Made by a program: the position numbers and the translations under genes. Under the pieces are notes generated by a model. That model saw only the letters and a program-made list of their open reading frames with translations. It made no database searches and was not told where the DNA came from. This document shows positions 22,830-24,794 of a DNA stretch of 25,165 nt, piece by piece; within the stretch, counting starts at the first letter, position 1, and each line of letters begins with the position of its first letter. Origin of the DNA: an uncultured bacterium (lineage in GTDB: Bacteria > JAJVIF01 > JAPKYR01 > CAZSPL01); contig CBDVBS010000001.1 of NCBI GenBank assembly GCA_965372275.1, positions 1-25,165 on the forward strand. The letters run 5' to 3'.

Positions 22830-24794
22830 TTACGAGTTCTCACCTTTTTTCATCTTGTTTAGATTATCGATATGTCCCTTGGTTTTGGCTATGTTTATCT
22901 TATTTCCCATTTCGGTGAATAACACCAGCGCTTTCTTATACATTTCCTCCGCTTCATTGAGGTCGCCGCGCGTTTTGTGCAGTATGCCGAGATTGCCGTA
23001 AACATGAGCCATTCCTCCCTTTCGCCCTAATGCTTCATTGATATCCAAAGCTTTTCTATACACTTCCTCCGCGTCGTTGAGGTCACCGCGAGTAATGTAC
23101 AATACGCCGAGGTTGCCGTAATCTAGAGCCATTCCTTCCTTCAGCCCTAATGCTTCATTGATATCCAATGCTTTCTTGTACATTTCCTCCGCTTCATTGA
23201 GGTCACCGCGCATAAGGTACATATTACCAAGGTTGCCATATTGATCGGCCATTCCACTCTTTCGCCTTAACGCTTCATTGATATCCAACGCTTTCTTATA
23301 CATTTCCTCCGCTTCATTGAGGTTACCGCGTGTAAGGTGTAATAAACCAAAGTTACTATATACTTGAGTCATCTCCTCCTTTAACCCTAATGCTTCATTG
23401 ATATCCAACGCTTTCTTGTACATTTCCTCCGCTTCATTGAGATCACCGCGCGTTTGGTACAGACTGCCGAGGTTGCCAAATATACGAGCTATTCCCGCCC
23501 TTACTCCTAATGCTTCATTGATATTCAGCGCTTTCTCATACATTTCCTCCGCTTCATTCATGTCACCATGCGTAAAGTACAGATTGCCGAGGTTGCCATA
23601 TTGGGTGGCCATTCCAATCTTTTGTCCAAGCCCTTCAACGATATCCAACGCTTTCTTAAACATTTTCTCCGCTTCAATGAGGTCGCCGCGGGTGAGGTTC
23701 AAATTGCCGAGGTTACCGTAAACTTTAGCCATTCCTTCTACAAGGTCTAATACTTTGTTAATGTCCAGCGCTTTCCTATACATTTCCTCCGCATCATTGA
23801 GGTCTCCGCGCGTAAGGTACAGGTTGCCGAGGTTGCCGTAACTTTTAGCCATCCCTTCCTTTCGCCCTATTGCTTCATCGATATCCAACGCTTTCTTATA
23901 CATTTCCTCTGCTTCACTGAGGTCACCGCGTGAACTGAACAATATGCCGAGATTGCCGTATGCAACTGACCGTAATTCTTCATTTTGTGTTGCTTCACTG
24001 GCTTCGGCCAAATCCTTGAATATTTCTTCAGCTTTTAGCAGAGAACCAATTCTGTATAAGAATAATCCGTAGTCCACAAGTATTCCCGGATTTTCATGGA
24101 CGGAAAGAGCTTTTGCGAATAGCTGTTCTGCGAGGGTTAATTGTCCTGCATCCGCTTGCTTATTCGCCTCTGTTGCTAAATCCATTGCGATGTCGTGCTT
24201 TTCTGATTTTACTTTATCGAGTTCCGATTCCAATTGTTCGATCCTATCCAATAATTCCGGTGGTGGTTCGTTAGTGCTTGTGCTGCTTGGTGGATGCCCC
24301 TCAAGCCATTTGCACAGGTCTATCATCAACTTCTCTTTCCAGTCTTCAGGAGAATCATAATGTTTATAGAGGTATTGTTTTTCTGCTTCGATTTTTTTCC
24401 TGAAACTCAATACCTGGCTTAATTGCTCACCGGGATCAACTAAACGATCATCCTCAATGCTGCGGAAGTAGAACCAAATGTCCTTGTCATTTGCGTTGGA
24501 GAGTTCATATTCCTCTTCAAAACCGGACTTAAAGCCGTTTGTACTTGAACCCCAACGCCTCCAGAGGAGCATCACAATCAAGTCGCATGCCAAAAGGTCT
24601 TCATTTATCTTTTCTTGTGGTCGACCTTTCCCCGGTGATGTGTCCTCCCATCCAACGGCCTCCAGCAATACACCTCTTTCTTTACCCTTAATTCGATTAA
24701 CGAGTTCGATGATTTTAGGGAATATTTTGCGCTCGTCTTTCAGGTCACCTGGTGAACCGATGAAGATACGTACGATCTTTAATTCGCCACCCAT
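22830..24794 (-). CDS. DUF4062 (TIR/NDT-like) domain + coiled coil + TPR array protein
   Basis: IFIGSPGDLKDER, VGWED..PG.GRPQ..IN.DL..CDLIVMLLWRRWGS...SGFEEEY...IWFYF, followed by TPRs; GGAGG RBS. Confidence 0.82.
   Translation of the reverse strand: MGGELKIVRIFIGSPGDLKDERKIFPKIIELVNRIKGKERGVLLEAVGWEDTSPGKGRPQEKINEDLLACDLIVMLLWRRWGSSTNGFKSGFEEEYELSNANDKDIWFYFRSIEDDRLVDPGEQLSQVLSFRKKIEAEKQYLYKHYDSPEDWKEKLMIDLCKWLEGHPPSSTSTNEPPPELLDRIEQLESELDKVKSEKHDIAMDLATEANKQADAGQLTLAEQLFAKALSVHENPGILVDYGLFLYRIGSLLKAEEIFKDLAEASEATQNEELRSVAYGNLGILFSSRGDLSEAEEMYKKALDIDEAIGRKEGMAKSYGNLGNLYLTRGDLNDAEEMYRKALDINKVLDLVEGMAKVYGNLGNLNLTRGDLIEAEKMFKKALDIVEGLGQKIGMATQYGNLGNLYFTHGDMNEAEEMYEKALNINEALGVRAGIARIFGNLGSLYQTRGDLNEAEEMYKKALDINEALGLKEEMTQVYSNFGLLHLTRGNLNEAEEMYKKALDINEALRRKSGMADQYGNLGNMYLMRGDLNEAEEMYKKALDINEALGLKEGMALDYGNLGVLYITRGDLNDAEEVYRKALDINEALGRKGGMAHVYGNLGILHKTRGDLNEAEEMYKKALVLFTEMGNKINIAKTKGHIDNLNKMKKGENS
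22893..23972 (-). repeat. Nine tandem 120-bp (40-aa) TPR-coding repeats
   Basis: Unit MAxxYGNLGxLYxTRGDLNEAEEMYKKALDINEALGxxxG; DNA strings such as CATTTCCTCCGCTTCATTGAG recur at 120-nt spacing. Confidence 0.95.

Follow-up and report, generated by a model that had tools for sequence, protein, structure and literature searches.

A NIR (DUF4062) head joined directly to a TPR array: a probable single-chain immune-type sensor-effector encoded by an uncultured bacterium

Overview

The window analyzed here, a stretch of 25,165 nucleotides from an uncultured bacterium (GenBank assembly GCA_965372275.1, contig CBDVBS010000001.1), is a complete contig of a fragmented metagenome-assembled genome (MAG; 654 contigs, 86% complete). 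On its reverse strand a gene at 22830–24794 specifies a protein in which an N-terminal NIR domain (formerly DUF4062) is followed, with no NTPase domain in between, by a long array of tetratricopeptide repeats (TPR). We consider it probable, at roughly 0.6, that this is a cytosolic, single-chain sensor-effector of the immune type, composed of a TIR-like NAD+ glycohydrolase head and a TPR sensor. An initial annotation, made from the letters of the DNA, had proposed a sensor-effector of this kind lacking a STAND module, and our analysis supports that overall reading.

DUF4062, since renamed NIR, is a TIR-like, glutamate-dependent NADase of phage defence, as described in three preprints of 2026 (bioRxiv 10.64898/2026.09.04.749371; 10.64898/2026.05.01.722283; 10.64898/2026.06.25.731849). 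Glutamate-dependent NAD+ hydrolysis and abortive defence were reported for KpSwz (E97; bioRxiv 10.64898/2026.05.01.722283), and both likewise for PsAvs2 (E108), Vulcan (E98) and the VstA protein of Vesta (E103; bioRxiv 10.64898/2026.09.04.749371). All four assayed NIR systems deplete NAD+, with ADP-ribose as the product wherever products were measured. The NADase chemistry of the protein described here, its dependence on a glutamate and its part in defence would carry over from these published relatives.

The biochemistry of NIR domains, and the idea of a NIR-repeat receptor without a STAND module, have been in print only since 2026, and the sensors so far tested on NIR heads are HEAT-type (Vulcan) or non-repeat. 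While the NIR-repeat kind of protein is therefore already known, the NIR-TPR layout is new. The protein stands for a large sister group to the tested HEAT-type, one with a regular TPR sensor in which a few groove positions vary.

Gene and domain layout

The features of the gene are as follows; Eva01, with which several residues are compared, is the NIR protein of the Evangelion system.

22830..24794, minus strand: whole coding sequence, 654 amino acids and a stop codon; NIR (DUF4062) head followed by linker, stalk helix and TPR array
24801..24805, minus strand: Shine-Dalgarno-like GGAGG, 6 nt ahead of the ATG at 24794
24300..24794, minus strand: NIR/DUF4062 TIR-like domain, residues 1–165 (Pfam, PADLOC, AlphaFold2, structural matches to nucleoside deoxyribosyltransferase (NDT) and TIR proteins)
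24762..24764, minus strand: F11, invariant aromatic residue, aligned with Eva01 F11 (alignment)
24615..24653, minus strand: residues 48–60 (GWEDTSPGKGRPQ), at the BB-loop position between strand B and helix B; nearly invariant
24507..24527, minus strand: SGFEEEY, residues 90–96, active-site motif opening helix C; E93, E94 and E95 invariant
24510..24512, minus strand: codon of E95, predicted catalytic glutamate; matches Eva01 E87, with tyrosine next, as in Eva01 E87–Y88
24261..24299, minus strand: Pro/Ser/Thr-rich linker, residues 166–178; mean predicted local distance difference test (pLDDT) score 63 over residues 171–180; variable in homologues
24153..24260, minus strand: stalk helix, residues 179–214, candidate coiled coil; 4-3 hydrophobic spacing over residues ~181–206
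22875..24152, minus strand: TPR array, residues 215–640 (TPR_12, E 1.5e-89, 8 stretches; TPR_NPHP3, 102 bits)
22896..23975, minus strand: nine regular TPR units of 40 amino acids (120 nt), residues 274–633 (repeat analysis)

Searched with the whole protein, Pfam assigns PF13271 (DUF4062) to residues 9–97 (E 4e-7, 30.6 bits, the cut-off being 24.7), and residues 1–180 alone score 33.1 bits with the same family; no TIR family (PF13676, PF01582) matched residues 1–180 at E-values up to 0.01. The PADLOC candidate profile PDC-S60 covers residues 6–165 (E 3e-24), with only the first 168 of its 906 positions. Its other ~740 positions are unmatched in the window protein, and the match is likewise confined to the N-terminus in HEAT-, TIR- and S-layer-type relatives.

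Pfam TPR families span residues ~205–640, and no HEAT family occurs among the best 25 of the 36 Pfam matches. All that separates the head from the TPRs is the 13-residue linker and the 36-residue helix, and neither a Walker A motif (regular-expression scan) nor an NTPase family (Pfam) was found anywhere in the protein. The helix is confidently predicted by AlphaFold2, with eight of its 12 a/d positions hydrophobic in the best heptad register, and an RIExLExEL-like motif within it is found again in TPR-type homologues. This layout is the one that the initial annotation had described: its open reading frame proved exact, preceded by the GGAGG; its alpha/beta domain with SGFEEEY corresponds to DUF4062 above the cut-off; its short coiled coil falls in the heptad-patterned helix; its long TPR array resolves into nine regular units and a degenerate one (residues ~215–640); and the absence of an NTPase domain between head and repeats holds.

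Fold of the head and predicted active site

An AlphaFold2 model of residues 1–215, built on 40 homologues, has a mean pLDDT of 92.7 and shows five strands (residues 6–13, 42–47, 72–77, 105–111 and 142–146) alternating with helices, that is, the five-stranded parallel-sheet TIR/NDT-like fold by which DUF4062/NIR is recognized. When this model was compared by VIA-align with 48,161 PDB chains the top 14 matches were all members of the NDT or TIR superfamily (Z 10.1–11.4). They are MilB and RCL/DNPH1 (the best two), YtoQ, three deoxyribosyltransferases together with a putative fourth, the RPS4/RRS1 TIR, TIRAP, TIR-1, TIR-STING, the SARM1 TIR, the MAL TIR and a conserved protein of Enterococcus faecalis (7m5h). 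Le Mouellic et al. give the same NDT/TIR ranking for the head of PsAvs2 (bioRxiv 10.64898/2026.09.04.749371). Foldseek against the PDB returned TIR proteins, a CMP (cytidine monophosphate) N-glycosidase, DNPH1 and SARM1, and also Ras, flavodoxin and SelB, with TM-scores below 0.5; since this list is mixed and its scores are low it is not decisive, and the VIA-align result is the clearer one. Sequence searches of the PDB chains, by single sequence and by profile, gave nothing meaningful, and the best structural match in Swiss-Prot was human NPHP3.

Eva01 (WP_000072390.1, plasmid pMW2) was aligned to the family profile with hhalign. In this alignment F11 corresponds to Eva01 F11, and S90-G-F-E93-E94-E95-Y96 to S82-Y-T-E85-M-E87-Y88. 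The Evangelion pocket comprises F11 and the E87–Y88 pair, E87 being the putative catalytic glutamate (bioRxiv 10.64898/2026.06.25.731849); because E95 aligns with E87 it is the predicted catalytic residue here. The original suggestions of a TIR/NDT-like head and of a catalytic glutamate within SGFEEEY thus agree, respectively, with the modelled fold and its top matches and, by homology, with E95. Across the 40-homologue alignment F11, E93, E94 and E95 are invariant; the middle glutamate, E94, has a methionine at the aligned position of Eva01.

The loop G48–Q60, though nearly invariant, is modelled with the lowest confidence in the domain (pLDDT 72 over residues 51–60). In resting KpSwz it is the BB loop that shuts the pocket (bioRxiv 10.64898/2026.05.01.722283). 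A homodimer prediction for residues 1–215 scored 0.09 against a mark of 0.42, which counts neither way.

The TPR array

The array consists of approximately ten TPR units, a degenerate one followed by nine regular ones of 40 amino acids each. The units are 64–84% identical in DNA, with a synonymous divergence (dS) between them of ~0.8, values which rule out homogenisation of the units at the DNA level. Scaffold positions show a ratio of non-synonymous to synonymous change (dN/dS) between units of 0.20, indicative of strong constraint, and seven unit positions (4, 5, 11, 13, 14, 38 and 40) vary freely (dN/dS 1.17). In canonical TPR numbering, unit positions 4, 5, 11 and 14 presumably correspond to helix A positions 2, 3, 9 and 12, several of which commonly point into the concave ligand groove of a TPR solenoid.

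At 654 amino acids the window protein is the longest of 51 TPR-type proteins. Two homologues from different samples (L009:10001–11785 and L084:10001–11665) have the same neighbours and the same termini and are one 40-residue unit apart (594 versus 554 amino acids), suggesting that the number of repeats varies, unless one assembly has collapsed.

Homologues, phylogeny and distribution

A word-indexed search with the head recovered 177 proteins. An exhaustive search of clusters at 50% identity gave 7,313 matches at E ≤1e-3, 2,754 at 1e-10 and 305 at 1e-30, the last figure taking in HEAT-type and other architectures too; the best match has 63% identity. The C-termini of the first 120 matches were sorted by similarity to seed domains: 52 are TPR (one labelled only U46), 36 HEAT-like, 14 carry an undescribed domain of ~340 amino acids, five are S-layer-type, three TIR, two TIR plus TPR and two BNR/sortilin-like, the rest being unassigned. 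Besides TPRs, the NIR head thus occurs in bacteria and archaea with five or more other kinds of C-terminal module.

In a maximum-likelihood tree of the N-domain a HEAT clade and a TPR-backbone clade each receive support of 100/99. The other C-terminal types are nested inside the TPR-backbone clade, which suggests that the head has been re-used with exchangeable C-termini. The window protein is a deep member of the TPR-backbone clade, sister to the HEAT clade, with no firm position inside it. Within the HEAT clade lies a protein from a Klebsiella MAG with DUF4062 and HEAT_2, the architecture of Vulcan.

Distribution is patchy. Only two of 40 related genomes have a homologue (37–40% identity), and the sole genome of the same family has none. 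Heads that are 44–59% identical occur in MAGs, all species-representative genomes, of Asgard archaea, ANME-2 (anaerobic methanotrophic) archaea, Methanophagales, Methanoperedens, Dehalococcoidia, Bacteroidota and Planctomycetota; matches on plasmids are only 26–37% identical. The composition of the gene itself is foreign-looking, its GC content being 0.443 against 0.500 for the window and its GC content at third codon positions 0.476 against 0.53–0.73 in 13 of the 14 other open reading frames. The initial annotation had remarked that the gene looks AT-richer than a neighbour which it called arcE; the bias holds against the window as a whole and extends to third codon positions.

Several of the alternative architectures deserve mention. 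In five relatives (P0024, P0028, P0038, P0042 and P0053) the NIR head is followed by a domain of the archaeal S-layer type (PF07752, E 1.8e-46) and TPRs are absent; in an example from a Candidatus Methanoperedens MAG (L090:10001–11449) the head starts at residue ~8 and there is no obvious signal peptide. One might speculate that, on a cytosolic NADase, a copy of an S-layer domain could work as a decoy that senses the receptor-binding proteins of viruses. Others have a canonical TIR domain immediately after the NIR head, either as NIR-TIR_2-TPR (P0039 and P0065) or as NIR-TIR (P0051, P0062 and P0094), and so have two NADase-type domains per chain; one of these relatives is named from a Methanofastidiosa MAG. 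Finally, P0036 and 12 relatives, which form a clade (99/81), have a C-terminal region of ~340 amino acids with no Pfam match, a further unnamed type of sensor.

Comparison with known systems

The closest parallel is Vulcan, a single-protein NIR-HEAT fusion without STAND (Le Mouellic et al., bioRxiv 10.64898/2026.09.04.749371). In both, a single gene joins a NIR head directly to a sensor of alpha-helical repeats and includes no STAND NTPase, and the N-domain of the window protein is 36–49% identical to those of HEAT-type proteins. Unlike Vulcan, it has a TPR and not a HEAT array, and its N-domain belongs to the sister clade, outside the HEAT clade. Swarozyc KpSwz (Osinski et al.), a single protein triggered by the phage portal (bioRxiv 10.64898/2026.05.01.722283), similarly has a DUF4062 TIR-like NADase head, a helical stalk and then a sensing domain; its auxiliary domain is, by description, a winged-helix core, whereas the C-terminal part here is all TPR according to Pfam. 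Eva01 of the Evangelion system (pMW2; Ibarra-Chavez et al.) aligns over 142 columns of the core, including F11 and the E-Y pair, but at ~20% identity, and only in the core; it is a protein of 324 amino acids with a short, non-repeat auxiliary region.

A NIR domain at the N-terminus and repeats at the C-terminus, often TPR, are also found in PsAvs2 and other NIR-bearing STAND proteins that resemble nucleotide-binding leucine-rich repeat receptors, and in NPHP3, NWD1 and TEP1. These have a central STAND/NACHT NTPase, of which there is none here. NPHP3, which the NIR preprint counts among the human NIR-containing proteins (bioRxiv 10.64898/2026.09.04.749371), is in addition the namesake of the TPR_NPHP3 family model, matched here at its cut-off. 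The window protein could therefore offer a simple prokaryotic model for the NIR and TPR pairing of this human protein.

In E. coli the anti-phage TIR-II systems (Nat Commun 2024, PMC11350192) likewise combine a NADase-type head with TPRs, are mostly ATPase-free and may consist of a single protein; their head is a canonical TIR, whereas only DUF4062 was matched here. DSR2 (PMC11850899) couples a head that depletes NAD+ to an alpha-solenoid tail by which a phage structural protein is bound, and it too lacks an NTPase, a comparable plan built from a sirtuin (SIR2) catalytic fold and unrelated helical repeats. A direct NIR-TPR fusion is described neither in the NIR preprint, where "TPR" occurs in figure abbreviations only, nor in the Swarozyc preprint, from which the word is absent.

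Genomic context of the homologues

The contexts of 11 homologues, ten TPR-type and one S-layer-type, were read for neighbours within 10 kb, with no control set. They share no synteny and no conserved partner gene, and thus give no sign of the conserved housekeeping synteny that would speak against an immune role. HicB adjoins P0057 and P0058; near P0025 are a DEAD-MZB helicase, PLDc_2 and a faint HNH; DUF3800 is found near P0040 and P0061, with an Eco57I fragment also near P0040; and an integrase and a nucleotidyltransferase are located near P0024.

Two homologues have genes connected with NAD or ADP-ribose in their vicinity, perhaps by chance. In a Dehalococcoidia MAG (L087:5637–9163) an RNA cyclase, a SIR2 sirtuin and an isochorismatase-QRPTase fusion, the last resembling a nicotinamidase plus a phosphoribosyltransferase, lie 0.3–3.9 kb downstream of the homologue, and elsewhere a Macro-domain gene (L008:7550–8080) is situated 2 kb upstream of one. 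A gene for a Tricorn-like protease adjoins two of the ten TPR-type homologues (L008:11229–13217; L085:11841–15227), once on the same strand and 47 bp downstream.

Proposed function and alternatives

In the mechanism which we propose E95 would be the catalytic glutamate, with F11 and Y96 lining the pocket, and the Pro-rich linker and amphipathic stalk helix would connect the head to its sensor, a presumed solenoid of some ten TPR units whose variable positions, mostly in helix A, would lie on the ligand-groove side. At rest the head would be kept inactive, the BB loop lying over the pocket as in KpSwz. The TPR array may then bind a phage-made protein; binding would gather or re-arrange several heads through the stalk helix and free the BB-loop-gated pocket, upon which E95 would drive NAD+ hydrolysis, followed by cell arrest. 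The phage trigger, the assembly of several heads and the part that this clade would play in defence are the most conjectural elements of the scheme. The patchy spread across domains, the foreign-looking base composition, the swapped modules and the varying repeat number suggest an accessory conflict gene rather than a housekeeping factor.

A number of observations weigh against this proposal. The eukaryotic NIR domains of NPHP3, Nwd1 and Nwd2 gave no NADase activity in assays (bioRxiv 10.64898/2026.09.04.749371). Not one of the 11 homologue contexts forms a clear defence island; defence- or mobility-type neighbours (toxin-antitoxin, nuclease, helicase, DUF3800, restriction-fragment or integrase genes) occur in ~5 of the 11, a figure which has no control set beside it; the neighbours in the window itself are metabolic or envelope genes. 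In the structural comparison GTPase folds start at Z 9.9 against a best value of 11.4, a small margin, though the ranking is consistent. The tie to the tested Enterobacter Vulcan protein, lastly, is one of architecture and not of sequence; a search for that protein by way of E. coli genomes and plasmids gave no match.

Some of these points would suit a non-immune regulator or scaffold, in which the NIR head would mediate contacts between proteins or turn over NAD+ locally, and a cellular complex would be assembled by the TPRs. Such a role would be in keeping with the ordinary metabolic neighbours in the window and in most homologue contexts, the inactivity of NPHP3, Nwd1 and Nwd2 in the assays of the NIR preprint, the resemblance to NPHP3 both in structure (best Swiss-Prot match) and in the TPR_NPHP3 model, and the Tricorn-like protease gene beside two homologues. 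We nevertheless think it unlikely: a pure scaffold would have no need of the catalysis-linked pocket residues that are invariant here, and the patchy, cross-domain distribution, the atypical base composition, the exchange of C-terminal modules and the variable repeat number all argue in the other direction. Less likely again, and to our minds distinctly improbable, is that the gene specifies a conflict or defence protein with another chemistry, the head making an NAD-derived signal, as in Thoeris and plant TIRs, or cleaving another nucleotide, as do MilB and DNPH1 (N-glycosidases acting on CMP and on deoxynucleoside monophosphates). MilB, a CMP hydrolase, and RCL/DNPH1 are after all the best two structural matches; production of a signal has been raised by the authors of the NIR preprint (bioRxiv 10.64898/2026.09.04.749371); the pocket differs in detail from that of Eva01, given the methionine there in place of E94; and one homologue lies 1.4–2.3 kb from the sirtuin and the nicotinamidase-phosphoribosyltransferase fusion, another near the Macro-domain gene. 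Set against this are the depletion of NAD+ by four of four assayed NIR systems, with ADP-ribose formed wherever products were followed, and the consideration that signalling would need a receptor or second effector gene, none of which is conserved beside the homologues. That we are dealing with what is left of a transferred gene, decaying or silent and devoid of present function, seems very improbable indeed. The single copy in a fragmented MAG, the repeats at the contig end and the atypical GC content might suggest as much, but the frame runs unbroken through 654 codons behind a good ribosome-binding site, every invariant residue of the family is kept, and the TPR scaffold has a dN/dS of 0.20 between units.

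Returning to the sensor-effector with a NADase head, one may extend the proposal to the family, although as a joint statement this is tentative and we would not ourselves count on it. NIR-TPR proteins could represent a defence family as yet without a name, the sister of Vulcan, which moves between bacteria and archaea (Asgard, ANME) and in which a NADase head is fitted with exchangeable sensor cassettes, the ten-unit array described here binding a phage protein directly. Such cassettes could be TPR, a second TIR, BNR/sortilin-like, the ~340-residue region and the S-layer-type domain of Methanoperedens, possibly an intracellular decoy for the receptor-binding proteins of viruses. The questions that the protein raises are whether TPRs can drive a NIR head without an ATPase switch, which ligands the arrays bind, and whether archaeal members act against archaeal viruses.

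Local surroundings and host genome

The upstream side of the gene is occupied by dispersed repeats resembling repetitive extragenic palindromic (REP) elements, which had been noticed just upstream in the initial annotation and which proved to be of three kinds.

24973–25026, 25028–25074 and 25077–25165, no strand assigned: three kinds of REP-like dispersed repeats, with 53 further matches on other contigs

These repeats (40–90 nt) lie within 356 bases upstream of the gene, the contig ending inside the last of them, and one kind holds the hairpin CACCGCTA..GAGTCTTCGA..TAGCGGTG. Many of the 53 further matches also sit at contig ends, and dispersed repeats therefore probably break this assembly. 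On the downstream side the spacer is unique in the genome and includes a site that resembles a promoter of the gene that follows; since dispersed repeats are found upstream only, a REP-bracketed cassette was rejected. An Rfam search of 22000–25165 gave no match, and no convincing terminator was found.

The next gene downstream, which had been named arcE, encodes instead a CpgS-like putative GTPase. The statement that the gene stands alone has support in the 11 homologue contexts, which hold no conserved partner; on its own upstream side it covers the 371 bp up to the contig end. An archaeal host, brought to mind by LVIVD and CpgS-like neighbours and by the archaeal homologues, was rejected: the genome contains a bacterial ribosomal protein L21p and no genuine L15e, MCR or archaeal small-subunit rRNA match. 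PSD1 and DUF1501 were looked for in the genome and not found. Elsewhere in the window (7111–9762, plus strand) a gene encodes an 883-residue protein made up entirely of HEAT repeats (HEAT_2, E 4e-69), in which no head domain is recognisable.

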